A DNA stretch of 32,901 nt from a virus: positions 362,573 through 395,473 of the IMG/VR virus record IMGVR_UViG_3300032132_000001; one strand, written 5' to 3'. The notes beneath the pieces were generated by a model that was given only the letters and a program-made list of their open reading frames with translations, was not told the DNA's origin and did no database searches. Below are positions 3,608-32,901 of this stretch, in pieces. Position numbers and translations under genes: made by a program. The first letter of the stretch is position 1; the number at the start of each line of letters is the position of its first letter.

Positions 3608-6600
3608 TTATCCCGTCACTTCCACTAGTTCCATCTCAACCTCGTCGCAAACTCCGCAATCCACGTGGAAGGCGAACGGGTCCTGTGGGAACTCGTCCCC
3701 ACAAACGAAGTTGGTCTGAAATTCGTCGATTCGTTGTTCACACCCTTCCGCCAGTATTATGTAGCCGTCATCGGTGTGTTCGATGATCTGCCTACACGTT
3801 GTAACAATGCCTCTTCTAAACACTCGTCTCCCTTCAACCCTGCCGCTGGGTGGTTCTCCCCAAACTCTAGGGTCTAGTGTGGTGACGGTTATGTCGATTC
3901 TCGATCCTGATGTTTCGAACATTCCTATGTAGATGATTCCGTAATCGTCTACAAGCTTGAACTGTCCCTGTTCTGGATACTTTTCTTCGAATTCTAGATC
4001 AATAGCTGTCTCATCGAAGCATAGCATGTTAGGTATTGTTCCGTCAACTTTCGTTGAACATGTGCCGAACTTCTCCGTCAACACCATGAACAGGTCTGTA
4101 GTGACCCGATCGCAATTGAAGTCCAGGCTGCTATCTGGGAGCCTGAACAGCTCGACGGAACACCTGTCGATGGTTGCTTCTTCTTCGCTTGGGTTCGTCG
4201 GGTCGCAGCCAAATGTCTCGCAGCCGCAATCAAGACGGTAGGGGGCGTAAAGATGTGCCCGTGGGTCGTCTTTCGCCACCAGGATGCCAGAGCCGCACTT
4301 GAAGAGAAGATCGACACCTTCGGTGCCTTCACCACCGCCTTGAGGCACACCAAGCAGCAAAGTGACATCCACATCTTCGCTCGTGCCCCGGGGATAATCA
4401 AAATCTGCAAGATCCGCCTCATAGCGCCCGGTTTCGGCCGGGTAGCCGTTGGCGAAATCGACGCCAGCGGGCTCGCTCCCGCTTTCGTCTATCGCGTCTG
4501 GCGGGCAGGCGCAGTTTTCGTTGGCCGATTCGAAGATGGGCGGCACACCACTGCCAAGACAGATAGCGTCCACATCAGTAAACACGGTCTGTTCGAACAC
4601 CACTGGATCCGTGCTGACAGCACGAGGCTCTGCAGTGGAGTAGATCGCATGGGTTACCAAGAAATCTCTGTGTGCGTGCACGCTTAGGCTGGAGATGTCT
4701 GGCACCAAGCCGTTCCCGCAATACTCAAGTGGGATGTCTTCGAAAGTGAGGAACTCGTCCCCGTCCGTCCCTTCCACGATCAAGGGGTTCAGATCCTCAA
4801 TCGTGGGCTTATCTGTTCCTATAGCTTCGGGGCATTTGTGGAAAATGTCATCCCACGGCCTATAAGAGTAGATCGATACAAAATCGTTCTCCAGCTTGTT
4901 CATGGAGACGAATCTGTGCCCTGGGAAGAAAAGGTTGTCCTTTTGAATATCGAGGGAAGGACGCCTGATCGCAAAGAACTCGTTGCTATCAACGAGGTCG
5001 TTCCTGAATTGATCTCTGTCAGTGTAGTGAAGGGTGGCTCCCTGGTAGCTCTTCACTCTTGCGAAGAGAGTATGAAGGAACGACACCCCAATGCTAGAGC
5101 GATCGCAACGATCATCTGCGAAGGTGCCGACCTGCTCTGGCACGATGGGGGTGGTATAGTACGCACCATGCCCCATGCCAAGATTGCAAGGCTTACATCT
5201 CAACAGTTCGGTTGCAATCAGGCAGCGATCGATCTCTACCGGAGTTTGAACACGACCTTTATAGCAATAATCGTCAGAGTTCCCTTGTGTAGAGCAGAGC
5301 TTAGACCTATCATCTGCGATATGGTCGAAGTCTTTCTCCCCATTGCTTATAACTCGGTCTTGGCCAGCCGGGGTGAACTCGCAGGGAGAGGCGTCCGGTC
5401 TCGGAATCGCCACATTGGAGAGAGCTTCTAGTTCCGCTCGCTGTTCTTCGGGTACCACATGGGTACCATCTAGATCTTTCCAAGTCTGGTGTTCGTTCTC
5501 CAGCCCAGCGATGATCTTGGCACGGAGGTCTAGTGTCTCCTGGCTGAACCCTCTATCATCGTCGCATTCTGTTGGGTCTAGTGGGATGATAGCGGGAGGC
5601 GTCTGTAGTTCCCCAGCATCGGTACCCGGAGCCTGCTTATTCAGACCACCCAAGCAGAAGTCTTGGACGTTGTAGACTTCGCAGCAATCTATTAGTATAA
5701 TGATCTTGCGTAGGAGAGAGTGGAACGCCTTCAATCTCAGTACGAAATCCAACAGGAATTCGTACAACTGGCTAGTTGGCTCTTCTCCCTGGACCGACAG
5801 GATCTGGATGTCGAAACGGTTAGATTGCAGGTTTTGTAGTTCAGGGGGAACGACGAGCTTGTCGTAGAGATAGGTGGCGAATATGAAGAGCTTCTGTCGC
5901 GATCGGTCGAAGTCGATGTAGTGGTCGAACGTGACCGTTATTACGTTGTTATCACTGCCGTACCTGAGACCGACTTTGTTTAGTGGCGCATCGTTTACTT
6001 GTCTGTCGTCGGTGCCTTGGCCCGATTCAAGATCGATTAAGACCTTGGAGAACCCGAGGATTGGCGGGCTGATGGAAGCGAGCGCGGGGGATAAGAGATA
6101 TCCGTCGAGGTCGAGAGCACAAACGCCCTCAACAGATTCTGGCATATCATCAACGCTGTCTGATATTGCCTGTAGCTCAGCTTCGGCCGCCGAACCGATG
6201 TCAACCAGATAGGCGTCAACAGTTACATCCGAAGTTGGCCTGAAGAGAAGCGGAACAACAATTTGTCCGAAGCCATCTTCTGAGAAATCGGAGACTAGCG
6301 GCTCTGTGCGGCACGTCTCTTCTTCGGTGATTTGGTCTTCGTTGGGCGCTTGGAACCCTGAGCCGTCTTCGTTATACCAGAGGTTCCTGATAGCAACCAT
6401 GAACCCGAAGATTTCGAACAGCTCGACCAATACCCTGCGCGAGCCCTTGAGCTGCTGCAACCGACGAGCATTTTTCAGTACGTTACGCCGGATTTCATCT
6501 GTGGACCCTGGGAAGTATGGCAACTCCCAGCCAACAAGATATGCAAGATAGGGAATAAGCTGCTGCGGGATGCGGTTGACGAAGTTGACACCTTCTAGGA

Positions 6601-7360
6601 GGTTCTGTTCGTCGTGGATGTCCTGCAGGAGATCGGCAAAGGGTCGTAGAAACTTGACATATGGGTCATCGTCAAGTGCAACCTGTCCGTCGAAGTAGAT
6701 GGACGGAGTGTTAGAAAAAAGAGCCTGGTGGACCTCACCAGGGTGAGCATGAATCAGATCGTATCTAGCTAGAGCTTCACGAGTCGCGTCGATGCATAGG
6801 AGTTCTTGATCTGCGGTGACCAGACGTGGGTTGTACGATGCTTGCCATACGAACTTGTAACGTCCAAACGGCTTCAGATCGGCTGTGTCGATAGCGAATA
6901 TTGATAGGTCATAATAGTCGGCGTCTGGATGGTATACAATCCGATCTCTAGCTCCAGGCCCGTCTAGCATCCCTCGTTCAAGAGTGTACTCGAAGAAGTC
7001 CCCGTCTACCGCGTCGAAGAAATCCTTCTCCTCTCCGGTTTCCTGGTCGAAGAATATCTGCCCTTCAAGTGGGATAGCTGTCCTGCTCAGTTCTAGATCA
7101 GAAACGGTGACGACAAAGCGCTCAAGGTCCGGTACGAAGATGCCCTTATTCTGGAAACCAGCAACTGGCACCAACCCTGGCGCATCTTCAATGAAGTATC
7201 GGAGATCGAACACACCGGAGTTTGCTACCGGAGCGTCGTTTATCCTAACCCATGGAACTACTAGGACGATAGGGAGATTAACTGGTTGCAAGCCTGTCCT
7301 ATTATTTTGAATAGGCCATCTTACAAATTCTGGTTGGAATCGATCGGTTATTTCAGCCAT
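3608..7360 (-). CDS. large virion structural protein (1250 aa) with P2 gpI-like baseplate/tail domain; Cys-rich C-terminal region
   Basis: Segment LIPYLAYLVGWELPYFPGSTDEIRRNVLKNARRLQQLKGSRRVLVELFEIFGF matches the conserved core of phage tail protein I (P2 gpI, baseplate wedge) family; size comparable to T4 gp7-class wedge proteins. Confidence 0.55.
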   Translation of the reverse strand: MAEITDRFQPEFVRWPIQNNRTGLQPVNLPIVLVVPWVRINDAPVANSGVFDLRYFIEDAPGLVPVAGFQNKGIFVPDLERFVVTVSDLELSRTAIPLEGQIFFDQETGEEKDFFDAVDGDFFEYTLERGMLDGPGARDRIVYHPDADYYDLSIFAIDTADLKPFGRYKFVWQASYNPRLVTADQELLCIDATREALARYDLIHAHPGEVHQALFSNTPSIYFDGQVALDDDPYVKFLRPFADLLQDIHDEQNLLEGVNFVNRIPQQLIPYLAYLVGWELPYFPGSTDEIRRNVLKNARRLQQLKGSRRVLVELFEIFGFMVAIRNLWYNEDGSGFQAPNEDQITEEETCRTEPLVSDFSEDGFGQIVVPLLFRPTSDVTVDAYLVDIGSAAEAELQAISDSVDDMPESVEGVCALDLDGYLLSPALASISPPILGFSKVLIDLESGQGTDDRQVNDAPLNKVGLRYGSDNNVITVTFDHYIDFDRSRQKLFIFATYLYDKLVVPPELQNLQSNRFDIQILSVQGEEPTSQLYEFLLDFVLRLKAFHSLLRKIIILIDCCEVYNVQDFCLGGLNKQAPGTDAGELQTPPAIIPLDPTECDDDRGFSQETLDLRAKIIAGLENEHQTWKDLDGTHVVPEEQRAELEALSNVAIPRPDASPCEFTPAGQDRVISNGEKDFDHIADDRSKLCSTQGNSDDYCYKGRVQTPVEIDRCLIATELLRCKPCNLGMGHGAYYTTPIVPEQVGTFADDRCDRSSIGVSFLHTLFARVKSYQGATLHYTDRDQFRNDLVDSNEFFAIRRPSLDIQKDNLFFPGHRFVSMNKLENDFVSIYSYRPWDDIFHKCPEAIGTDKPTIEDLNPLIVEGTDGDEFLTFEDIPLEYCGNGLVPDISSLSVHAHRDFLVTHAIYSTAEPRAVSTDPVVFEQTVFTDVDAICLGSGVPPIFESANENCACPPDAIDESGSEPAGVDFANGYPAETGRYEADLADFDYPRGTSEDVDVTLLLGVPQGGGEGTEGVDLLFKCGSGILVAKDDPRAHLYAPYRLDCGCETFGCDPTNPSEEEATIDRCSVELFRLPDSSLDFNCDRVTTDLFMVLTEKFGTCSTKVDGTIPNMLCFDETAIDLEFEEKYPEQGQFKLVDDYGIIYIGMFETSGSRIDITVTTLDPRVWGEPPSGRVEGRRVFRRGIVTTCRQIIEHTDDGYIILAEGCEQRIDEFQTNFVCGDEFPQDPFAFHVDCGVCDEVEMELVEVTG

Positions 7361-7369
7361 AGCATCTTT

Positions 7370-7972
7370 ATGTATCTGAGTCGCATGAAGCCATCACAAC
7401 GTGCACGTGAGATTTTACGAGCGGAAGCACAAGCTATCCTTAATGTACCTTTGTCGGATGAGTTCGACAAAGTGGTTAACTTGATAGCTCGCATGGGCCA
7501 TAGAAAAGTACTTCTCACAGGCATGGGTAAAGCCGGGAATATCGCAAGGAAGGTCACTGGAACTCTCTGTTCCACCGGAACCCCAGCCTGCTTCCTTCAC
7601 CCTGGAGAAGCGGCTCACGGCGATCTCGGGCTTGTCTCTCCAGGCGACCTGCTGCTGGCCTTCTCGACCAGCGGGAAAACTCGCGAAGTACTGGAGACGA
7701 TCCAGCTCGCCCGCCGTCTGGGTGCTTCAACGGTGGTCGCCGTCACTTCACATCCAGACGCGCCTATCCGAAACCTAGCCGACTATGTTCTAGAGCTAGG
7801 AGAGATAGAGGAGCCGTGCTATCTTGGTCTAACGCCCACGGCAAGTACGACAGCTATGCTTGCGCTCGGAGACGCCCTCGCCCTTTGCATAATGGGCAAG
7901 AATAATATCAGCAAAGAGGACTATGGGCTTCGTCACCATGGTGGTTACCTAGGCGAAATAGCCAGAGAGTGA
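7370..7972 (+). CDS. kdsD: SIS-domain sugar-phosphate isomerase, KdsD/KpsF (arabinose-5-phosphate isomerase)-like, lacking CBS domains
   Basis: [37 protein letters not shown]...[11 protein letters not shown] is near-identical in pattern to E. coli KdsD SIS domain ([37 protein letters not shown]...ISNSGES). Start chosen at first ATG (7370; alt 7385) rather than TTG7286, which would overlap divergent gene. Confidence 0.75.
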   Translation: [200 protein letters not shown]

Positions 7973-10958: not shown

Positions 10959-11831
10959 CTATGACCTTAGGGCTGGAGCAACGTATTCCCGACCTAGAAA
11001 TTGGAATACCTCCTCTTCTTCCCGAAATCGGTGAGCTTCGCCTTCCCGGAAGAGACCGTATTCGTTTAGACACCAACCGTCCTGTTTGATAGACGCACGC
11101 AGTGTCTTGTTGAAGTCTTTGCTCCCGGTCATGTGGAGTAAGGCCGTCCCCCACTGCGAGCGATCGATTATGTTTAATTCTACGCACGCGCCGTCCGTTA
11201 CAATAGCACACTTGCGCTTCCCTTTTTCAACAATCGGCCCAAGGCTGCAGAAAGTGTCGATCGCTTCGGGGCTCTCAATGAGGATGTCTATATCCCCAAC
11301 TGTTTTGGATTCCCGGCGCAAGGAGCCGGCGCACTTCATTTCGAAAGGTAATTGATCGGCTACTTTGGTAAATATACTGTATGCATCATCCCAGCAGATT
11401 CGCTCGGTTGAAATCTGCAGTCTTGCGGATAGAGTGGGGTTATTTATCTTTCCGACTTGGATTAGCTGTAGTAGACCTGTTCTTGTTGTTACTCGGTGCT
11501 TACGGTATAGCTTCTTTGCTGTCTTTATACCTATACCCTTAACACTCATGAGATCCCGCAGATCGCCATGCCTCTTAATCTGCTGGTTTAGTTCTCTCAG
11601 CTCGCCAGTCTCTAGGATCTCTATAATCTTAGCTGAGATCTTCTTCCCAACACCCGGGATATCGGCAAGCGCGACGTCGTCGAGCGGCCGTCGAAGATCC
11701 TCAATGTTCTCTGCAGCCTTCCTATAGGTGCACTGCAGGTATTTGAGGTTTTTGAACTTACTCATTGACAGAGTAAGATACTCCGTATGGGTACGGAGGA
11801 TAGACACCACAAGCGCGTTACTCGGATCCAC
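10959..11831 (-). CDS. DNA polymerase family X (Pol beta-like) minimal polymerase, ~270-290 aa
   Basis: 8-kDa/HhH region YRKAAENIEDL...DIPGVGKKISAKIIEILETGEL; second HhH VKGIGIKTAKKL; catalytic GSLRRESKTVGDIDILI (two Asp), LLHMTGSKDFNKTLRASIKQDGWCLNEYGLF and C-terminal YVAPALRS all match Pol beta/Pol X motifs. Track start is GTG11831; ATG11765 (MSKFKN...) plausible. Confidence 0.8.
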   Translation of the reverse strand: MDPSNALVVSILRTHTEYLTLSMSKFKNLKYLQCTYRKAAENIEDLRRPLDDVALADIPGVGKKISAKIIEILETGELRELNQQIKRHGDLRDLMSVKGIGIKTAKKLYRKHRVTTRTGLLQLIQVGKINNPTLSARLQISTERICWDDAYSIFTKVADQLPFEMKCAGSLRRESKTVGDIDILIESPEAIDTFCSLGPIVEKGKRKCAIVTDGACVELNIIDRSQWGTALLHMTGSKDFNKTLRASIKQDGWCLNEYGLFREGEAHRFREEEEVFQFLGREYVAPALRS

Positions 11832-13460: not shown

Positions 13461-13877
13461 TCACCATGTCCGTCCGATAGTGAGATGATACTTGGTCTTT
13501 GGTGTCTCATCGAGACCAAGCTCTATTCTTATCTCAGCAAGTCGGTCAGAGAAACAGTCAACGAAATAGTAGCTATCAGGTCGGTCCCAGCCGGTCGTAT
13601 CCCCGGCCTGGCGGATCAAATACTTGTATTCGAAGGTTATGATCTCGCCGTCGTGCTTCTTCCACGCTTCAAGATTAGGCGGTTCGATCCCGCGCACAAC
13701 CGAGAGGTGGGCGCCCCACGAGGGTTTGTGGAGCTTTACTTCTTGGTGGATCAAGATTTGGTGGCGGAAATAACGGCAGAGATCCTCACAGGTCTCCAGC
13801 ACAAGCCACCATGGATTATTGGATTTTAGGCCCGGTCGTTCCGGGTTATAGACGAGTTTTCCGCTGCACCGTAACAT
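13461..13877 (-). CDS. 2H phosphoesterase superfamily protein (LigT/CPDase/Acb1-like), 138 aa
   Basis: Two H-x-[ST]-x motifs flanked by hydrophobics: AHLSVVRG (~aa 57) and YHLTIGR (~aa 131), ~74 aa apart, the hallmark of 2H phosphoesterases. Confidence 0.6.
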   Translation of the reverse strand: MLRCSGKLVYNPERPGLKSNNPWWLVLETCEDLCRYFRHQILIHQEVKLHKPSWGAHLSVVRGIEPPNLEAWKKHDGEIITFEYKYLIRQAGDTTGWDRPDSYYFVDCFSDRLAEIRIELGLDETPKTKYHLTIGRTW

Positions 13878-14334: not shown

Positions 14335-14757
14335 TTATCCCTTTAGGTATTCTAATGCTCGCCTGTAGTTTCCTTCTGTCATACAGACGACTGGGTCGAT
14401 TTCTACGAAATTGTCCATTTTGTAAAGAGGTAGGTCATCTAGAATAGTATACTTCACGTCTGGATGAAGCTCTAGCCATTCGCAGATATCGGCCTCCCTA
14501 CGTGCGTTGGGAGATAGTTCATATGAAGTCCATTCTTCATGTAGAAGAATCTCTAGATCTATCCCGTTTTTCTGGAACAGATCAATTACTACATCTTTCC
14601 CGCAACCGACCCATGTACTAGAGACGACAACCTTAGCTCCCGATTCCTCGATCAGGCAAAGAAGAGCCGACTTTGCTTCTGGGACGAAGATCTGGCTGCT
14701 TGGATCAGCAGCAGAAATGAGTACTCCGTCGATGTCGAGGAATATTACTTTGTCCAT
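14335..14757 (-). CDS. HAD-superfamily phosphatase (140 aa)
   Basis: Motif I IFLDIDGVL (DxDGV), motif II VVVSSTW, motif IV ILDDL. Start at ATG14757 (TGATG overlap with upstream gene); track ORF starts further upstream. Confidence 0.7.
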   Translation of the reverse strand: MDKVIFLDIDGVLISAADPSSQIFVPEAKSALLCLIEESGAKVVVSSTWVGCGKDVVIDLFQKNGIDLEILLHEEWTSYELSPNARREADICEWLELHPDVKYTILDDLPLYKMDNFVEIDPVVCMTEGNYRRALEYLKG

Positions 14758-15065
14758 CAGATTCCAAAGGTCCAAACCATAGCAGTGGCCCAAGCAAGAG
14801 TGCCAGCCACTATGAAAATGGCGATGATCAATAGCCCGTAAGCGAACAACAACCCCAAGCAGGAGTGCAGGGTCATAGCGAGCGCGAACAACATGCCACG
14901 CCATCCATCGTTCTCAATGGACTTGAGCGACATTTGAAGTAAGCCGAATTCATCGTCTGGGCCTTCTCCCAAAAGCACAGTGCGCCAAGCATCTATCGCT
15001 TTTGGGAGAAGTATGATGTAGCTCACGGCAACCATGAAGACTGCCCAGTCAGCCCAGGTGGTCAC
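14757..15065 (-). CDS. small integral membrane protein (3 predicted TM)
   Basis: Hydrophobic segments AVFMVAVSYIILL, LFALAMTLHSCLGLLFAYGLLIIAIFIVAGTLAWATAMVW. Confidence 0.5.
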   Translation of the reverse strand: MTTWADWAVFMVAVSYIILLPKAIDAWRTVLLGEGPDDEFGLLQMSLKSIENDGWRGMLFALAMTLHSCLGLLFAYGLLIIAIFIVAGTLAWATAMVWTFGI

Positions 15066-15786: not shown

Positions 15787-16531
15787 TAGTCACCTCTATA
15801 TAAGGGCTATCGTGTTGCGTGGAGAAGAAGTAGCAAGTTCCAATTAGGATCTTCATAAGGAAACGGTCGAATTGATCCAAAATCCCAAGCGCCCGGTGGT
15901 GCATTTCATTCACTTCCAGTGTGTCTAGCACATCGGTGATAAACCTACCCCACCAATCTGGAGTTCTTGTGATGTTTAGCACACCGGGCAATCCTGCTAC
16001 CCAACTATTGATTATTGCTTCTTTATCTTTATCGGTCCTGATCTTTTTCATGAACTGGACGCAGTAAGCAACCACGTTCGGTGGCGCATTTTGCGACGCT
16101 TTATCATATACATCTGGATCAAGATGAGTTGTCAGCTCGGCCTTCTCTAGATCGAGGAGTCCGAGATATCTTCTTACGTCTCGTTCAGTGATCTCATCTA
16201 CAAATCCGCCAGGACACAGAGTGAGAACAGTGTTCTCCTTGTCCTCGATTTCGAACTTGCTGAAGAGCCATTCTGTGGAGACGTCAAAGGGGCAGAGGAT
16301 CATTGGAATTTCCAAGATCCTCCTTGCCCCTGATAAGCCTATAGTCTGTACATAGTCGTCCCTAGTGAGCACTACCGAATGGTACTTCTGCTCATTATAC
16401 TCGTAGGACGTCTCGAAGACTGGGGTTACATCGGTGATCTGCTCTAGGAACAGTTCGTTCATGCGAGCAAATTCTTGTTGAAGCTCTTCGGTGGTCTTAG
16501 CTTCTACCGAGTTCTCTTGTTTGCCATCCAT
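15764..16531 (-). CDS. hypothetical protein (~255 aa) downstream of helicase
   Basis: ORF; start taken at first ATG after helicase stop region. Confidence 0.45.
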   Translation of the reverse strand: MDGKQENSVEAKTTEELQQEFARMNELFLEQITDVTPVFETSYEYNEQKYHSVVLTRDDYVQTIGLSGARRILEIPMILCPFDVSTEWLFSKFEIEDKENTVLTLCPGGFVDEITERDVRRYLGLLDLEKAELTTHLDPDVYDKASQNAPPNVVAYCVQFMKKIRTDKDKEAIINSWVAGLPGVLNITRTPDWWGRFITDVLDTLEVNEMHHRALGILDQFDRFLMKILIGTCYFFSTQHDSPYIEVTNDDGNDD

Positions 16532-17468
16532 CTCTTGATCTACTCGACACGTATCTCTTATTCGGGGTAACAACCTGACGCATCAGCACTTTCGCACGAG
16601 AAGCGTAAGGCAGGGCCTCCACGAGGTTACAGTTTAATTTACCCTTGTAAGTGCGCATCGCACGCCCAGCCATCTGGGTCAGCATGCTCTTGCTCCGGGT
16701 GTTCCGGGCCACGACCACGCTCTTCGTGCACGGGAGGTCGGTTCCTTCCGTCAGAATCAGGCACGAGAACAGCACGTCCACCTTCCCGTCTTCGAAATCC
16801 TGGAGCTGTCGCTCCCGGTTCGATTTGCCGGTGACAATGGTGGTTCTCATCTGAAGCTTCTCAGAGAATTCTGCTCCTGCAGCCTTGGTCGGCACGAACA
16901 CAATGGTCGGACCGAGCATGCTCTTGTGAGCATTCATCCAAGACGGTAGCACTTCAAGGATATCACCCTTACACCGGACAGAATATACCCATGGTGGTGC
17001 CAGGTATCCTTCTGCAACGAGCTGGTCGATGGAGATCCCAACGACCTGCGCATCAAAGTAGAGGGTTGCGTTGTCTTCGCGTTTGGGCGTAGCGGTCAGA
17101 CCCAAGAACCGGTCGAAGCGAAGCCTATCCTGTAGATCCCGGATGGTGCTGCAAGACTCGTGGTGAGCCTCATCTAGCACCACCAGGTCGAATTTGCCCC
17201 AGGTCGGGTCCGGTCGCTTGAAGACAGAATGGAATACTACGTCATTCCGGCCAAGTTTCTGGAATGACTCATTGGCCTGTTGGAGGAGTCGTCTACGGTG
17301 GGCTAGCCACAGTACCTTGCGGTAGGGCCTGCAAAGCCCTGCCGCAGCAGTGTAAGTCTTACCTCCACCGCACGGCAGGACCGCAAGCACCCGCGCAGCA
17401 CCAGATTGGAAGATTTCGTAGACGGCATCCGTCATATCTTCCTGGTACCAGCGGAGTGATGTGAACAT
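16497..17468 (-). CDS. superfamily-2 DEAH-box DNA/RNA helicase (323 aa)
   Basis: Motif I LPCGGGKT, motif II VVLDEAHHE, motif III LTATP, motif VI QMAGRAMR; N-terminal LRWYQ typical of type III-res/Rad25-like helicases. Confidence 0.8.
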   Translation of the reverse strand: MFTSLRWYQEDMTDAVYEIFQSGAARVLAVLPCGGGKTYTAAAGLCRPYRKVLWLAHRRRLLQQANESFQKLGRNDVVFHSVFKRPDPTWGKFDLVVLDEAHHESCSTIRDLQDRLRFDRFLGLTATPKREDNATLYFDAQVVGISIDQLVAEGYLAPPWVYSVRCKGDILEVLPSWMNAHKSMLGPTIVFVPTKAAGAEFSEKLQMRTTIVTGKSNRERQLQDFEDGKVDVLFSCLILTEGTDLPCTKSVVVARNTRSKSMLTQMAGRAMRTYKGKLNCNLVEALPYASRAKVLMRQVVTPNKRYVSSRSRDGWQTRELGRS

Positions 17469-17966
17469 TTAGTCCTCTTCAGCTAGATCCTCATACACCT
17501 CATCGAGGATTTCGGCGAACTGGTATAGTTCGTGATGGATCGCTTTGCGCGGACTCACGTCGCTCCAGCGCTCCAACGCCCAGAAGAAGGGGCGCAGCAG
17601 GATCGGCGTGCGGCAGATCCAGTCTGCGTACTTCCGCAGTGCGTTGGCGGTCAGGCTCACGTCGAGGATCTCCTCAGCGGTGTCCTCACCATAGAACTGG
17701 ACCAATCCGTCGATCAGATTGATTACCGAGATCTCGGCAAGCTGCTGCTTGCCTACGATACCATCCGTCATGAGCTTGACAGCCGCAGGCGCGACCACAT
17801 TACTCATCAATTCTGCAAGGGCCAGGTTCTCATCCTGGTCCAGAAAAGGTGCCGGCTTGCTGCTCTGGTGATGCTTGAACAGCGTGGTTGCGCTGTGTTG
17901 GAACAGCGTGGTGGCAACCGGACGTCGAATCAGGGCGTCTGCCAAGTTCTTTGGTGTGATTCTCAT
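17469..17966 (-). CDS. hypothetical protein (165 aa); weak resemblance to all-alpha MazG-like NTP pyrophosphatase
   Basis: ATGA overlap with purA/purZ-like stop and TAA-ATG abutment with helicase: operonic. Segment AEEILDVSLTANALRKY loosely resembles MazG E-x-x-D helix (EELGDVLFxL). Weak. Confidence 0.4.
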   Translation of the reverse strand: MRITPKNLADALIRRPVATTLFQHSATTLFKHHQSSKPAPFLDQDENLALAELMSNVVAPAAVKLMTDGIVGKQQLAEISVINLIDGLVQFYGEDTAEEILDVSLTANALRKYADWICRTPILLRPFFWALERWSDVSPRKAIHHELYQFAEILDEVYEDLAEED

Positions 17967-19108
17967 GTAAGTTCCATTACGTGGTGCATACTGTCGGGAC
18001 CAGTCCCGACCACAGTCACCGGGATTCCGGCGTCATCTTCCACCTTCTTGATGAAATCAGTCACCTTGGTCGATAACCTGCCGGGATCGTTGGTGCCATA
18101 GCAATCCCAATCGAGGTAGTTTGCGAAGTTGAGCGCGATCTTAGTCGCTCCCGTCACCATCACGGCGTATTGGAGCTGCGTGGCGGAGTAGGAGAACACG
18201 CGTCGCAGACGTTTGGTCACCGTGGTGAGTTCGCCCTTCGCGACGAGCGGCGGCGCTCCTGCTTCCCGCGTCACCTGTTCCCAGGTGATCTCATTCTGGT
18301 GAGGGTAGCAATCACCGGAGTATCCGACCGTCTTCCCGTCTTCCATTACGTTACCCACGCGGATGGGGAAGGGACGGATTACCATGTAGATGTCGCCAGC
18401 CCACTGGTGCGGTACACCCATGTCGGCCATCATCTGCATCGGAGTGCACTCTCGCGAGGTGCACTGTGGGTAGTGTGACCCGTGGTTGACTCCGAGGCTG
18501 AATCCCTGGCTCCCTTCATGCAACCAGGTGTACTCATTTTTCATCATGAGTATAACCTGTTCACTGAAGAGTGGGTAGACATCACCCTGAGCATCTTGAT
18601 TGGTCACTACACCCCAATCCAACATGTCACGGGCAAGCTTTACTTCAGCACCACGCATCAGCTTCTCAGCCTGTACCGCACCAGATCCCTGCATCGTACT
18701 AGCGATGTGCTTGGTATCGGTGCGCTCCATCTTCGCGTGATCTTCGGTGACGATCATCGCTCTCGGATGGATGTGTACTTTCTTACTTGTGGGGAGTTCG
18801 TCCGAGATGTAGTCACACTCTCGGAGTTCCTGCATTAGGCGTTCCACGGTGAACCCGGCACCAGCGCCGATGTAACACCTCATATCGTAGCCTAGCTTGT
18901 TGAGAATACAGCTGGCAGGAATCACCTTAGAAATGAACTTATATTCTTTGCCATTGACGTTACAGATGGCGGTGTGCCCTGCATTTGGTAGATTGGTCGT
19001 AGAAGCACACTTTACTCCATACTTCCATGCCAAGAATGTGGCGATGTTCCCTTTGCCAGTGCTACCCCACTGACCGTCAATTACTAGATTGAATTTACCT
19101 GCTTGCAT
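17963..19108 (-). CDS. purA: adenylosuccinate synthetase family protein (PurA homologue) with variant P-loop GSTGKGN; PurZ-like (2-aminoadenine pathway) candidate
   Basis: [21 protein letters not shown] vs E. coli [46 protein letters not shown] vs [31 protein letters not shown] vs ATTGRRRRTGW; ISTGPD-like VVGTGPD. Start at ATG19108 with perfect SD AAGGAG 6 nt upstream (track start 19150). Confidence 0.8.
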   Translation of the reverse strand: [381 protein letters not shown]

Positions 19109-19287
19109 GAACGGCTCCTTGTGTAGGTCCGTTTCAAATACTGCTGTCATAGTGGACCGGGCAGGATTTGCACCTTGCGTCTCTGTCTCCAGCGCTTTCC
19201 TTCTCGATAACCATAGGTGGGTTATAAGTTCCCCATCGTTCCAGGGGCTCCCACCCTTAGGGTCGCTAAGCTACCGGCCCAAATATA

Positions 19288-23799: not shown

Positions 23800-24038
23800 T
23801 ATTCTCCCCCTATAAATACAATCCCTTCATTGCATTCTTCATTATCACAGTCCATGCCGCCATCGAAGCCATGGCATTCTGGACAGTACTCATAGTCCTC
23901 ATGATGAACAGCAGTGTATAGCACTAGTTGTCCATCATTATCTGTTTCGACTTGGTAGCCGTATTTGTCTGCAATGTCGTATACTTGCTTACGAGCTGCA
24001 GCTTCCATCTTGTCTGCTTCTTCTTTAGATTGGCTCAT
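23799..24038 (-). CDS. hypothetical protein with C-terminal Cys cluster (CPECHGFDGGMDCDNEEC)
   Basis: ORF, coupled to neighbours. Confidence 0.45.
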   Translation of the reverse strand: MSQSKEEADKMEAAARKQVYDIADKYGYQVETDNDGQLVLYTAVHHEDYEYCPECHGFDGGMDCDNEECNEGIVFIGGE

Positions 24039-24811
24039 TTAGTTGCCGTGTCTACGATGGCTTCCCTAATCAGGGACCATCCTGAGAAGGTGGGATCGAT
24101 AACTCGGAAGTGGGAGCACTTCTCGATGACCAATGAGGAGACTTTGTCTCCCGCCTTCTCTGCTGCGACAGCATAGTCGAGGCACTGGTTCATCAGTCTG
24201 TCCTTGGAGCCAACTAGGACGAGCTGCTTCGCTCCTACCGGCAGCTGCTCCATAGGGGAGAGTACCGGATGCTTGCCGAAGAACTCTTCGATCTCGGGCT
24301 TCAGCCCTTCTAGGTTCTTCAGGTCGAGCGCGCCTGCTATCGTGATCACAGAGAACGGCGTGAAGGGGAGCGGGCGGTCAGCGAACTCTTCGCTCTGGTC
24401 GATAGCGCAGAGGCAGACCGCGAGATGCCCACCGGAGGAGTGACCGAGCAAGGACATTTTAGCCTTGTCTAGCTTCCACTCGTCCGCGTTAGCCAGAACG
24501 CAGTCGATCCCATCCAGCAGATCGATAAACGTACCTGGGTAACCACCGTCGATGTGGCCGAGGCGCTTGAACTCCAGGTTGCAGGAAGCGATCCCGTGCT
24601 TTACCAAATCGGCGCACAGGTACTCCATCTGCTTCGCCCTATAGGACGACTTCCACTTACCGCCGTGGATGGTTAGGAGTGTGGGGTGAGGTCCATCACC
24701 GCCGGGGACTCTGACAGTGATGGACTGGAACGGTTTCTTACCGTACTTGACCTTGTGGGTCGGTTCGTCAGGTGTGGTGTAAAAGACGTCGGGCAGTTTG
24801 AAGTAAGGCAT
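24035..24811 (-). CDS. alpha/beta-hydrolase fold esterase/lipase-type enzyme (Abhydrolase_3-like)
   Basis: Oxyanion-hole HGG motif (LTIHGGKW) and nucleophile elbow GHSSGGHL (GxSxG); C-terminal His-containing region; 258 aa. Confidence 0.7.
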   Translation of the reverse strand: MPYFKLPDVFYTTPDEPTHKVKYGKKPFQSITVRVPGGDGPHPTLLTIHGGKWKSSYRAKQMEYLCADLVKHGIASCNLEFKRLGHIDGGYPGTFIDLLDGIDCVLANADEWKLDKAKMSLLGHSSGGHLAVCLCAIDQSEEFADRPLPFTPFSVITIAGALDLKNLEGLKPEIEEFFGKHPVLSPMEQLPVGAKQLVLVGSKDRLMNQCLDYAVAAEKAGDKVSSLVIEKCSHFRVIDPTFSGWSLIREAIVDTATK

Positions 24812-25683: not shown

Positions 25684-26324
25684 TATCGTCTCCAGAGGTG
25701 CTTGTGCATCGCTCCCATGGCAATGGGAACCGACTCAGGTTCATAGATGGCACTAAGGAAAGTCTTCATCCCGGTAACCATCATATCCTGGCAATCCATC
25801 AGTTGAGCCACACTTTCAATCAGATGCTCTACAAGATGTGGGTTACTGAGAGGGATGACGACTGATTCGCCTAGGAGGTCTGGTTCTCTATTGTCTCCAC
25901 GGCAGTGCTCCATGATCTCCATCATCTGGAAGATGCCAGGGCCACTGAGGTACAAGACAGCAGATCTTTCTGTGACGCTATTCTCTGCAGGATCTGGGTC
26001 TTCGACGTTTAGGTGGATGTGGGCTTCTAGGACGAGAGTCTCATCCTTTCGGTGGACCGTCACTCCCTTCGCCCATGATGCAGTGGGCTCTCGGAATTCG
26101 ATATCATCTCGCCAGTTGGTAAGTTCTGTTTTGAGATGTTCAAGTTCCTTTTCAAGCTCAGGCGGTGGTCCGATAACACCAACGATGGTGATGTCGTCGG
26201 GATCCAAGGCCAATGACATGCAGGCATATTCATAGAAGTTCTTTAGTGCTTCCTCACTAGAGCTGGCTTCTACGTGTTCTACTGCATTTCGATGAGATCG
26301 ATAATTGATCTTATATTGGGGCAT
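25683..26324 (-). CDS. hypothetical protein (213 aa)
   Basis: ORF. Confidence 0.45.
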   Translation of the reverse strand: MPQYKINYRSHRNAVEHVEASSSEEALKNFYEYACMSLALDPDDITIVGVIGPPPELEKELEHLKTELTNWRDDIEFREPTASWAKGVTVHRKDETLVLEAHIHLNVEDPDPAENSVTERSAVLYLSGPGIFQMMEIMEHCRGDNREPDLLGESVVIPLSNPHLVEHLIESVAQLMDCQDMMVTGMKTFLSAIYEPESVPIAMGAMHKHLWRR

Positions 26325-27157
26325 TATACCATCTTGAGGAAATCGTCGGGGCTGATGAGCTTCACCCCGTATGACCGTGCCTTATTGGCTTTGCTAGAAG
26401 TGCTGGTAGGATCGAGGATGATGAGGTAGTGGAGGTCCTTGCTGACACTCGACTTCACCTCTCCACCGTGCTGCTCGATCACGTCCGAGAGCCTGACACC
26501 GTTGTGGTTGCGAAGCCCAGTCATTGCGAAAGATTTACCAGCAAGAGGACCTTGCTGGATGAAGTCCATCACGTTGACCACCTTGGCGATTTTGTCCACC
26601 ATCGCCTGGCGTCGGTCTAGCCCTGCGCGGATCGCTTTAGCCTTCGTCTTGATGCCCTGGATGGAGGCGATGTCAGAGGTGGAGGATGCCATCACTGCGT
26701 CGAGTGTGCCAAACTCCTTGGCCAGCTTCTTGCCGTTGGTGCGTCCCAGGCCGATGAGGTTGAGGCCGGTGAGGAACGTCGCCAGCTTCATCTTCTTGGT
26801 TGCTTGGACGTTGTTGTACAGCTTGTCGCCGTTCTTCTGCGAGTTGCACGCCTTGGCGAAGATGTCAGCTGTCGCGGTGTACAGCCCGGCAGGGGTAGTG
26901 ATGCCCTCGGTGATCAGGCCCCGGACGACCCGCTGGCCCAGGCCCCGGATCTCGTGCGCCCGTACCCAATTCATGATGAGCCCGAAGGTCGCACCGGAGC
27001 AGTCCAGGTTGGGGCAGATGAGGTGGCGGGACTTGGTGCCGTCCACGTTCACCTCAAATTCTAGCCTAGTCTTGCAGTTGGGGCATTTGCCACTGAACCC
27101 GATATTGGGCACCTTTTTCTTCCCGCAGGTGCAGACAGGTACGGTTGCAGTTGTCAT
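26324..27157 (-). CDS. NAD-dependent DNA ligase (LigA) C-terminal module only: Zn-finger + HhH + BRCT, no adenylation/OB domains
   Basis: CPNCKTRLEFEVNVDGTKSRHLICPNLDC (Cys4 Zn finger), IMNWVRAHEIRGLGQRVVRGLITEGITTPAGLYTATADIF and LATFLTGLNLIGLGRTNGKKLAKEFGTLDAV (HhH repeats), LAGKSFAMTGLRNHNGVRLSDVIEQHGGEVKSSVSKDLHYLII (BRCT) align with E. coli LigA residues ~400-671. Confidence 0.8.
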   Translation of the reverse strand: MTTATVPVCTCGKKKVPNIGFSGKCPNCKTRLEFEVNVDGTKSRHLICPNLDCSGATFGLIMNWVRAHEIRGLGQRVVRGLITEGITTPAGLYTATADIFAKACNSQKNGDKLYNNVQATKKMKLATFLTGLNLIGLGRTNGKKLAKEFGTLDAVMASSTSDIASIQGIKTKAKAIRAGLDRRQAMVDKIAKVVNVMDFIQQGPLAGKSFAMTGLRNHNGVRLSDVIEQHGGEVKSSVSKDLHYLIILDPTSTSSKANKARSYGVKLISPDDFLKMV

Positions 27158-27438
27158 TTCACCCTCTCTAGTTTGAGCTTGTAGATTCTACGGCCGGGAA
27201 CGATGAAGAGATCTCCATCTATGCCACCTCGTTGTAAGTGGAGGTTCCCGTTTTGGAATGCTTTCGCCATATGAATACCATGAGACCCAGGGCATTGGTC
27301 GATGCAACCGGATTCTTTGAGAATCATGATTGCAGTGCGTAAGAATGCTTCTTCCGCATCTGCCCACGTGGCTTCGACAGCCGGGTCTGGTCTTAGGAGA
27401 CCACCCATAGACTGCTTGTCCCGAGTGAAGTTGTCCAT
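27154..27438 (-). CDS. hypothetical protein (94 aa); C-terminus faintly resembles last strands of LigA OB domain
   Basis: AFQNGNLHLQRGGIDGDLFIVPGRRI vs LigA [30 protein letters not shown]; weak. Confidence 0.35.
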   Translation of the reverse strand: MDNFTRDKQSMGGLLRPDPAVEATWADAEEAFLRTAIMILKESGCIDQCPGSHGIHMAKAFQNGNLHLQRGGIDGDLFIVPGRRIYKLKLERVK

Positions 27439-31427: not shown

Positions 31428-32495
31428 TTATCGGCCGAACCATTTGTTAAAGATTCTGTCGTATGTCCCATTTTCTTCGATCTCCAGTAGTGCAAGATTG
31501 ATCCGTTCGCGGAGATCGGAGCCGTTTGGCATCATCATTCCATAGTACTCATAGTGGAAGATCTCCCCGATTTGGATCACTTTGCCGGAAGGGTTGTTGT
31601 TGACGTAGTAGTCAATGGAGGGTACGTCGAAGACTACAGCCTCGACTTTCCCTAGCTCAAGAAGCGCGTACGCCTCTTCGATTTTGGCGACTTCCATCAG
31701 GTGCCCGCCATACTCGCGTACGGCTTTAGCGCTTGTGGTGCCTGCCTTGGTTGCAACGAGAGCGCCCTTTAGGTCCTTGGGCGACTTGATCTTGTAATTG
31801 ACCTTGCTAACTGTGTAGTCGGCGCTTAGTTTGGCAATGAAGAGGCCAAAGACGATGATGCCGACTATGATGAGTAGCGATGTGCAGAATTTACCGAGTG
31901 GTTTCTTTGGTGTGATGTCACCATAACCCACGGTAGATGATGTCACGATGCAGAAGTAGATGGCTTGCCATATGCCAACTGTATACTGGTCGTCAATTGC
32001 ATTCTCGCCACGCTCCGAGAAGTACATGATGTGAGCTACCAGTAAGATAAAACCGATGAAGAGCAGTAATGGTTCAATGTAATTCCAATACTGTATTTCT
32101 TGGTTCGGCTCTTTCTTCTGCACCAGGATCCTCAACCCTGCATCCAGGTATCTGTGGGAGAAATCGTAATCTTTCTCTCTTTCCCCATTGATGGTGATCC
32201 CAGCAACAGCTAGTTGACCATCAATCCCATTGACTTTGTTGAATATGTCTTTGAAATTCTGAGCTTCCACATATTCAAACTCGATACCAGCCTGTTTGGC
32301 TACAGCTTCCCAGATGTCGATATCGAATCCGGTGTACTTGCCGTCGATCTTCATCACGCAAGGCTTGAACTCGTGCACCACGACCTTGACTGGATCAGCG
32401 CACGCATCCACTGCGAAGAAGAGAAAGAAGGCGATCAGGACGATAATCAACACAGCCCTAATTTGCCCAGCTACCTCAGTGATTTTAGGTTCCAT
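31428..32495 (-). CDS. GluR0-type prokaryotic ionotropic glutamate-receptor-like, ligand-gated potassium channel (SBP lobe S1 - M1 - pore TVGYGD - M2 - SBP lobe S2)
   Basis: Exact K+ selectivity filter TSSTVGYGDITP preceded by pore helix IWQAIYFCIV and flanked by TM helices LLLFIGFILLVAHIMYF and LIIVGIIVFGLFIA; N- and C-terminal regions have family-3 periplasmic solute-binding fold features (KVVVHEFKP..GFDIDIW; ALVATKAGTTSAKAV); signal peptide; SD AAGGAAAGG. Confidence 0.8.
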   Translation of the reverse strand: MEPKITEVAGQIRAVLIIVLIAFFLFFAVDACADPVKVVVHEFKPCVMKIDGKYTGFDIDIWEAVAKQAGIEFEYVEAQNFKDIFNKVNGIDGQLAVAGITINGEREKDYDFSHRYLDAGLRILVQKKEPNQEIQYWNYIEPLLLFIGFILLVAHIMYFSERGENAIDDQYTVGIWQAIYFCIVTSSTVGYGDITPKKPLGKFCTSLLIIVGIIVFGLFIAKLSADYTVSKVNYKIKSPKDLKGALVATKAGTTSAKAVREYGGHLMEVAKIEEAYALLELGKVEAVVFDVPSIDYYVNNNPSGKVIQIGEIFHYEYYGMMMPNGSDLRERINLALLEIEENGTYDRIFNKWFGR

Positions 32496-32571
32496 GCCTT
32501 TCCTTACCCAGCCTTATCTTACCAGGCCGCACCCTTGCACACCCTAGAATGCCATACCCTGATCTATAGAA

Positions 32572-32598
32572 ATGGGCCGCCCAAGAAGGGCGACCCAT
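32572..32598 (-). terminator. hairpin ATGGGCCGCCC-aagaa-GGGCGACCCAT (10/11 bp) downstream of partial gene
   Basis: Inverted repeat in 127-nt intergenic region; followed by TTCTATAG on minus strand. Confidence 0.35.
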
Positions 32599-32616
32599 TA
32601 TACTCAACGTGCCACG
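32597..32616 (-). promoter_or_regulatory. 20-nt motif CGTGGCACGTTGAGTATAAT (minus strand), copy 2
   Basis: Contains perfect TATAAT; ~100 nt upstream of GluR0-like gene start. Confidence 0.3.
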
Positions 32617-32622
32617 AGATGG

Positions 32623-32901
32623 CTAGCTAGCGTTGTTAGCAGCCATGAGCTTGTTCAGCTCGTCATCGACGGCCACGTCGTCCGTGCTGTATTTCTCTTC
32701 CAGCGACGAGGACGCAGAGCCGGCCAGCTCTTCGAACGCTTCGGCTTCAGCTTCGTCCGACTCCACCGCGCGCTGGAGGTCGTCCAGCGCGGCGAGGGGG
32801 CTTCCGCCCGTGCCGAAGTCCGACGTCGCCTTGGCGAGGTTGGTGCGAATCTGAGCGCTCGCAGAACGAGCCTTCAGCTGCGCGTGATTGCTCTTCGCCG
32901 C
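32623..32901 (-). CDS. 3' portion of a gene continuing beyond window end; Ala/Glu-rich, coiled-coil-like C-terminus ...DDELNKLMAANNAS*
   Basis: Minus-strand frame open from 32901 to TAG at 32623-32625. Confidence 0.5.
   Translation of the reverse strand, partial: AAKSNHAQLKARSASAQIRTNLAKATSDFGTGGSPLAALDDLQRAVESDEAEAEAFEELAGSASSSLEEKYSTDDVAVDDELNKLMAANNAS

Follow-up and report, generated by a model that had tools for sequence, protein, structure and literature searches.

The closest described counterparts of the system reported here are nicotinamide adenine dinucleotide (NAD+)-dependent DNA ligases made of two polypeptides. Phage T5 is annotated with both ligA and ligB (PMC3632103), and the Protein Data Bank entries 9hu3/9i5i bear the title 'PR1 phage heterodimeric DNA ligase in complex with 21-mer nicked DNA'. 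A precedent from another enzyme of DNA metabolism is NrdA of Aeromonas phage Aeh1, which was fragmented into NrdA-a and NrdA-b by the homing-endonuclease gene mobE, and whose activity requires the tails that came from the insertion (Crona et al. 2011, PMC3045599). Here we analysed a 32,901-nucleotide (nt) stretch of a virus genome (IMG/VR record IMGVR_UViG_3300032132_000001, positions 362,573 to 395,473; hereafter the window), in which a first-pass annotation had noticed a stand-alone gene for the DNA-binding C-terminal half (C-half) of the NAD+-dependent ligase LigA. This gene (26324-27157, minus strand) very probably encodes one subunit of a two-polypeptide ligase, the catalytic half (N-half) of which is encoded just past the window.

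The locus resembles the T5-type ligases (T5 ligA/ligB, PVo5 A/B, PR1 and the family PHROG_3498) in being split at the boundary between the OB domain and the zinc (Zn) finger, with the same domain content in each half, and its C-half matches chain 9hu3_B of the PR1 enzyme in sequence searches (E = 6.9e-5) as well as in fold comparisons (E = 1.4e-9). The C-half is more similar to the unsplit LigAs of jumbo phages (45-50% identity) than to subunit B of PVo5 (~27%), and cysteine-bearing tails, which T5-type proteins lack, are found on both new termini. The arrangement of the genes is also different, as the subunit genes of PVo5, a Vibrio phage, are ~1.1 kb apart, whereas 12.2 kb and 23 genes lie between the halves here. 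Because the C-half is closer to unsplit LigAs than to T5-type subunit B, and because the tails differ, we infer that this split was independent of the T5/PR1 event.

Results

The window encodes the C-terminal half of a LigA-type ligase

Reading of the window sequence confirmed an ATG-initiated open reading frame (ORF) of 277 codons at 26324-27157 on the minus strand. In profile searches, the 277-amino-acid (aa) protein matched positions 384-652 of 656 in PHROG_3869 (E = 2.8e-41), which is the C-terminal part of the ligase only, and it matched the 256-position 'NAD-dependent DNA ligase' profile PHROG_3498 end to end (7-251, E = 3e-27). Pfam scans identified a BRCT domain (PF00533; E = 4.7e-9, 36.8 bits compared to a cut-off of 21.3) as well as HHH_5 (E = 3.8e-6, 27.7 bits compared to a cut-off of 27) and HHH_2 (E = 2.1e-5), and the protein aligned to residues 401-656 of Thermus filiformis LigA (1dgs; E = 1.1e-16). 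The first-pass annotation had stated that the ORF aligns with the DNA-binding C-terminal domains of LigA, and the PHROG, Pfam and 1dgs matches bear this out; its further statement that the ORF starts at the Zn finger, with the catalytic and OB domains missing, agrees with the start of the 1dgs alignment at residue 401.

The PHROG, Pfam and 1dgs matches, together with an AlphaFold2 model and Foldseek searches, gave the protein the layout of a ligase 'subunit B'. From its N terminus it comprises a head of 22 residues (MTTATVPVCTCGKKKVPNIGFS; 27092-27157), which alignment with unsplit relatives showed to carry an extra cysteine pair (C9 and C11), followed by the canonical Cys4 Zn finger of LigA (residues 23-53; 26999-27091), the helix-hairpin-helix (HhH) DNA-binding domain (residues ~54-194; 26576-26998) and the BRCT domain (residues ~195-277; 26327-26575), all read from the minus strand. 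C25, C28, C48 and C53 aligned to the finger of LigA and were near-invariant in one alignment (A1) and invariant in another (A3), and core Gly, Lys and Ser residues of the HhH and BRCT domains were invariant. The Zn finger also contained a 7-residue insertion (27037-27057, minus strand; FEVNVDGTKSRH in place of RDGAY) relative to the unsplit relatives and to the C-half of a related split ligase (locus L005, described below); the insertion was shared with two other C-halves, P0002 and P0003. The AlphaFold2 model (mean predicted local distance difference test score [pLDDT] of 86.9) showed a small beta ribbon, an all-helical HhH region (pLDDT >90) and a BRCT fold, and a Foldseek search with this model retrieved LigA structures and 9hu3_B. 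In the sequence and structure comparisons, the BRCT domain matched those of RFC1 and LigA.

A Shine-Dalgarno-like GAGG (27163-27166, minus strand) was located 5 nt upstream of the start codon at 27157. This ATG overlaps the stop codon of the adjoining upstream ORF (ATGA), which suggests translational coupling.

The catalytic half is encoded 12.2 kb upstream

No similarity to adenylation or OB domains was found in any of the six frames of the window by tblastn with LigA of MaMV-DH01, LigA of c-st and subunit A of PVo5 (E up to 100). The single high-scoring segment pair that ran upstream of the C-half ATG had essentially zero identities and crossed a stop codon. Likewise, Pfam and PHROG scans of the sizeable ORFs of the window, including unannotated proteins of 374, 348, 269 and 205 aa, detected no nucleotidyltransferase. 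Frameshifted or hidden remnants of a ligase in the window, for which the first-pass annotation had proposed a tblastn search, were rejected, as tblastn found only the 277-aa ORF.

The exact 277-aa protein was recorded on a 397,419-bp contig (ENA/JGI) and on a 176,964-bp Logan contig (SRR9663116_16096), and the window is thus less than 10% of a very large (~400-kb) phage genome, ~50 kb of which was read. No near-identical phage genome was found by megablast against 50,697 phage records. Using the 385-aa N-half of the related loci L005/L006 as a query, we recovered a 376-aa protein (P0025) that consists of the Ia, adenylation and OB domains only (Pfam PF01653, adenylation, E = 1.6e-32; PF03120, OB, E = 1e-25). 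Among the 120 matches listed, only P0025 lay on a contig with the length of 397,419 bp that was recorded for the C-half, and its locus (L010) is located together with the C-half on the Logan contig. The right edge of the window (32523-32901, minus strand) was an exact match of L010 to the reverse complement of the window, and this overlap placed P0025 outside the window on the same strand as the C-half, at virtual positions 39393-40523 (L010 10001-11131). The stop codon of P0025 is 6,492 bp past window position 32901, or 12,235 bp upstream of the C-half ATG at 27157, and there are 23 called genes between the two halves. Coverage of 1dgs by the two proteins was complementary (residues 25-396 by P0025 and 401-656 by the C-half), and P0025 matched the other chain of the PR1 enzyme, 9hu3_A (E = 5.7e-28).

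A search of the genome for an adenylation domain, as the first-pass annotation had recommended, therefore ended just beyond the window edge, and of the explanations that it had offered, a separately encoded catalytic fragment is the one matched by P0025, which lies on the same contig and strand. Since 23 called genes lie between the halves, no correction of a frameshift can restore a full-length gene, contrary to another outcome that had been envisaged. The 12.2-kb block was indistinguishable from its flanks in GC (guanine + cytosine) content and tetranucleotide profile and its context was conserved in relatives; a recent foreign insertion was therefore rejected as its origin.

The ORF adjoining the C-half gene on its upstream side (27154-27438, minus strand) encodes a 94-aa protein and ends in the TGA that overlaps the ligase ATG. 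It had been read as a possible remnant of the OB domain, a proposal for which profile searches offered no support. The 94-aa protein had no Pfam or PHROG match, no counterpart in the related loci and only a match to itself in a database of 5.8 billion clusters; a BLASTP comparison with P0025, the actual adenylation and OB protein of this genome, gave E = 7.2 with an alignment outside the OB region. With the OB domain located in the N-half gene, the OB-remnant interpretation was rejected and, judging from these comparisons, the 94-aa ORF is not part of the ligase.

These results indicate that the 277-aa protein is, with high probability, the DNA-binding subunit of a two-polypeptide NAD+-dependent ligase in which P0025 is the predicted partner. 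Taken together, the two proteins have every domain of single-chain LigA (Escherichia coli 2owo; T. filiformis 1dgs), along with its catalytic and Zn-binding residues. Unlike single-chain LigA, the enzyme would be assembled from two polypeptides encoded by distant genes, the equivalent of K290 is Asp, and the Zn finger contains the 7-residue insertion.

Both halves are intact and under purifying selection

The closest sequence relatives of both halves were the unsplit LigAs of jumbo phages (P0012-P0016, and P0024 on a 384-kb contig, L015), and both halves were 45-52% identical to the same unsplit proteins. These relatives differ from the split proteins in being encoded by a single ORF of ~620 aa, in which the linker is plain (...DRSxR...INLPxKCPxC) and extra cysteines are absent. 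In P0025, motif I (KLDG), TRG, motif III (RGE), motif IIIa (RNAAAG) and motif V (AIKF) were all intact. At the motif IV position that corresponds to E. coli K290, P0025 and two further N-halves, P0026 and P0027, have Asp (IDGLVVD), and the L005-type N-half has Lys. Because this column is variable among phage-type LigAs, the Asp was not read as decay, and the K-to-D replacement was rejected as a sign of inactivation.

Nei-Gojobori estimates gave an omega (ratio of non-synonymous to synonymous rates) of 0.068 for the N-half, at a synonymous divergence (dS) of 1.2. The C-half had 0.24 non-synonymous (pN) compared to 0.78 synonymous (pS) differences per site, the latter being saturated. Both halves are thus under strong purifying selection. 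The C-half was retained as a full-length ORF in 5 lineages, at identities down to 44%, and N- and C-halves co-occurred in 4/4 lineages, namely this genome, L005/L006, JGI 3300009514 (P0027 with P0002) and ERR12074541 (P0026 with P0003). Of two short contigs from 3300009514 (L009 and L011), one was collinear with the part of this genome around the N-half and the other with the part around the C-half, and the dispersed layout is therefore evidently conserved rather than an accident of assembly. The decay of a ligase gene, one of the suggestions in the first-pass annotation, was contradicted by the intact ORFs, the retained catalytic motifs and the strong purifying selection.

The junction between the halves carries new cysteine-bearing tails

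In the related loci L005/L006, the halves were 46-51% identical to those of this genome. The C-half of these loci (P0004, 46% identical) follows directly downstream of the 385-aa gene for the Ia, adenylation and OB domains and a LAGLIDADG gene. This homing-endonuclease gene (LAGLIDADG_2, E = 7e-24) is intact and lies between the halves on the opposite strand. No endonuclease gene was present next to either half in this genome, among the flanking ORFs.

We compared the sequences around the break point. Unsplit relatives read ...DVIP...DRSKRQFSGKIPRINLPKKCPSC... across the linker between the OB domain and the Zn finger, whereas the split junction of L005 reads ...DRSKRRYICSKCGKDHK* plus MEKSKCCKATLVPKINLPKKCPSC... 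and that of this genome ...DRSGREYLCLKCKK* plus MTTATVPVCTCGKKKVPNIGFSGKCPNC... (asterisks, stop codons). All split members shared a common break point and the same kind of new tails, of ~9-13 aa on the N-half and ~12-15 aa on the C-half, both of them basic. A Y-x-C-x-x-C motif ended the N-halves (4/4), and CxC or CC occurred within the first 12 residues of the C-halves (5/5 members of the split clade), while Cys-pair tails of either type were absent from 9/9 unsplit relatives. The tails are located at the position of the former covalent linker and were conserved across ~50% sequence divergence (46-51%), a conservation that speaks for a function. Scans of IMG/VR and JGI metagenomes for further members of the split clade yielded only unsplit relatives or L005-type contigs again.

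Because the break point and the type of tail are common to all split members, a single ancestral split is likely, arising most simply by insertion of the homing-endonuclease gene that is kept in L005/L006, with later separation of the two genes.

Other genes of the window and of locus L010

A 323-aa helicase (ResIII/Helicase_C) is encoded at 16497-17468 (minus strand), ~9 kb downstream of the C-half. In phages with an unsplit LigA, the helicase gene is linked to the ligase gene and located just upstream of it, and helicase homologues were also found shortly upstream of the ligase in L005/L006 (3 genes between) and in L015/L016 (2 genes between). The different position of the helicase compared to these relatives indicates that the replication module was probably rearranged. 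The window also encodes a 290-aa family X DNA polymerase, the Pol X named in the first-pass annotation (10959-11831, minus strand; DNA_pol_B_thumb E = 5e-19, HHH_8 and palm), which showed no specific link to the ligase half. Beyond the window, L010 encodes a minimal covalent nucleotidyltransferase of 193 aa at a distance of 3 kb on the upstream side of the N-half (6437-7015, plus strand; ATP-dependent DNA ligase domain PF01068 E = 5e-12, RNA_ligase E = 4e-4). This second ligase-like enzyme of the genome has neither an OB nor a DNA-binding domain and no obvious partner.

A 395-aa adenylosuccinate-synthetase homologue (17963-19150, minus strand; PHROG_1211 E = 5e-59, Adenylsucc_synt E = 1e-29), also present in L009, had phage PurZ as its best match, and this match to the PurZ family hints that the phage may replace adenine with 2-aminoadenine. 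'Swiss Army Knife' (SAK) RNA-repair domains were detected at 13461-13877 and 14335-14904 (both minus strand; 2H-SAK E = 2.7e-4, HAD_SAK_2 E = 1e-16), and related genomes encode RtcB next to the ligase N-half (L012) or RlaP (L015). In view of these SAK-domain, RtcB and RlaP proteins, the lineage seems to encode an RNA-repair system.

A 355-aa protein (31428-32495, minus strand), in which a periplasmic solute-binding domain (SBP_bac_3, E = 4e-29) is fused to the pore of a K+ channel (Ion_trans_2 E = 1e-16, Lig_chan), is a phage-encoded GluR0-like ligand-gated ion channel; past the window, in L010, its gene is neighboured by PspA- and DUF350-family genes. A 1250-aa protein (3608-7360, minus strand) contains a P2 gpI-like baseplate/tail domain (Tail_P2_I, E = 9e-8), and an end fragment of L005 is 51% identical to it, which supports the kinship of these tailed phages. 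Proteins with the look of auxiliary metabolic functions included a SIS-domain, sugar-phosphate isomerase-like protein (7286-7972, plus strand; E = 1e-22) and a BD-FAE/alpha-beta-hydrolase esterase (24035-24811, minus strand; E = 1e-16).

Discussion

According to this analysis, the 277-aa protein is neither a decayed gene product nor an orphan module but part of a split enzyme of a kind already known, here with dispersed genes. By analogy to LigA biochemistry and to the structure of the PR1 heterodimer, the N-half would self-adenylylate with NAD+ at the motif I lysine (KLDG), while the HhH and Zn-finger contacts of the C-half would clamp nicked duplex DNA. The two proteins would then assemble non-covalently around a nick and seal it when the phage genome is replicated and repaired. 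The history of the genes would have begun with insertion of a LAGLIDADG homing-endonuclease gene into the linker between the OB domain and the Zn finger, which left short new tails on both proteins, and in the lineage of the window the two genes would since have been separated by 23 genes.

Several observations weigh against this interpretation. Whereas the subunit genes of T5-type phages are adjacent, 12 kb lie between those studied here, and their co-regulation is assumed from their shared orientation in a co-directional array. In addition, the motif IV lysine is replaced by Asp in the N-half clade, although the column held K in 60, R in 54, S in 20, A in 10, E in 9 and D in 5 of the sequences. 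Finally, a second, full-length ligase may be encoded elsewhere in the 397-kb genome, beyond the ~50 kb that was read.

The most serious competing explanation is that the C-half acts independently of the N-half, alone or with other enzymes, as a factor that binds nicks or DNA ends, either masking nicks or using its BRCT domain to bring in Pol X or the host ligase. Such a role would fit the 12.2 kb between the genes and the fact that stand-alone Zn finger-HhH-BRCT proteins are common (~17 of the top 150 cluster representatives matched by the C-half were proteins of 250-300 aa starting at or near the Zn finger). It would also fit the faster divergence of the C-half compared to the N-half (64% vs 87% identity to the same relative) and the presence in the same genome of genes for Pol X (10959-11831) and a minimal ATP-type nucleotidyltransferase (L010 6437-7015), and the jumbo-phage literature has proposed that a stand-alone ligase DNA-binding domain may recruit the host ligase (PMC7824862). 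However, a matching N-half was present in every C-half lineage (4/4) and has no DNA-clamping domains of its own, the halves share a junction with paired, conserved tails, and the solved PR1 enzyme is a ligase composed of A and B chains. Nick sealing by LigA is known from domain-deletion studies to need the HhH domain, which likewise speaks against independent action. We therefore consider a separate recruiting role unlikely, and the autonomous, repurposed clamp that the first-pass annotation had listed is no longer needed.

The remaining explanations received far less support. That the C-half is a decaying, non-functional piece of a fragmented ligase gene would account for its missing catalytic domains, its descent from a homing-endonuclease disruption and the ORFan immediately upstream, but it is hard to reconcile with an intact 277-codon ORF that has a Shine-Dalgarno-like motif and a coupled start, with full-length conservation in 5 lineages down to 44% identity, with pN (0.24) far below pS (0.78), or with the invariant Zn-finger cysteines and core HhH/BRCT Gly, Lys and Ser residues and the confident AlphaFold2 model; we regard it as highly improbable. 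Even less credible is an artefact, i.e. a frameshift or chimeric join that cut a normal full-length ligA. The source is indeed a metagenomic assembly; however, the identical protein occurs on two contigs (176,964 and 397,419 bp), separate start and stop codons are present for each half, with 12.2 kb and 23 called genes between the two, the same separated context was found in two other samples, and extension of the reading frame upstream of the ATG revealed no ligase similarity. A split intein that rejoins the halves after translation by protein trans-splicing was suggested by the homing-endonuclease gene between the halves in L005/L006, by the Cys in the new tail of the N-half and by the precedent of 'fractured genes' that combine homing endonucleases with split inteins (PMC2677866). 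Nevertheless, this possibility was rejected because the new tails (~9-13 aa for the N-half, ~12-15 aa for the C-half) are too short and the endonuclease gene is on the opposite strand, and Pfam scans of either half detected no intein-related family; trans-splicing thus has next to no chance of being correct. For comparison, the fragments of split inteins are roughly 100 aa and 35 aa long.

With a two-subunit ligase as the preferred explanation, the junction invites comparison to Aeh1 NrdA. In Aeh1, and probably also in the ligase, for which such a gene is seen in L005/L006, an essential enzyme of DNA metabolism was split by a free-standing homing-endonuclease gene. In both cases the pieces are translated independently, and new tails that are absent from unsplit homologues are located at the insertion point. 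The two cases differ in the enzyme and in the endonuclease, which is of the LAGLIDADG type here and HNH-family mobE in Aeh1, and the window no longer contains the endonuclease gene, with a long distance between the halves. Moreover, the tails of Aeh1 NrdA are oppositely charged, whereas the two ligase tails are both basic, with one Cys pair in each. We tentatively propose that the CxxC at the C terminus of the N-half and the CxC or CC at the N terminus of the C-half may jointly bind a zinc ion and thereby staple the subunits together where the linker used to be, an idea that we consider possible but rather doubtful. The 22-residue head of the C-half would then be one half of this site, or else an assembly tail. 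Basic tails could simply contact DNA instead, while the disorder of the C-half Cys head when modelled alone (pLDDT <50) is neutral in this regard. If the proposal were true, the homing-endonuclease insertion would have given rise to a metal staple by which ligase genes can work from loci 12 kb apart, and this would be a new way to neutralise the fragmentation of genes by selfish elements, unlike the charge-complementary tails of Aeh1 NrdA.

New in this locus are the independent split, the conserved 12-kb separation of the halves and the clade-specific Cys pairs on both new termini. An apparent orphan was resolved, as the catalytic half of a ligase DNA-binding module lay just past the window, which is a reminder that the loss of a domain should not be called when only part of a genome is at hand. 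Although the basic understanding of DNA ligation is unchanged by these findings, they add an independently derived case, linked to a homing endonuclease, to the T5/PR1 class of heterodimeric NAD+ ligases, and demonstrate that two ligase genes can drift 12 kb apart while both are still under strong purifying selection. The paired Cys tails offer a hypothesis for the reassembly of fragmented enzymes which, if true, might provide a small zinc-dependent heterodimerisation tag.

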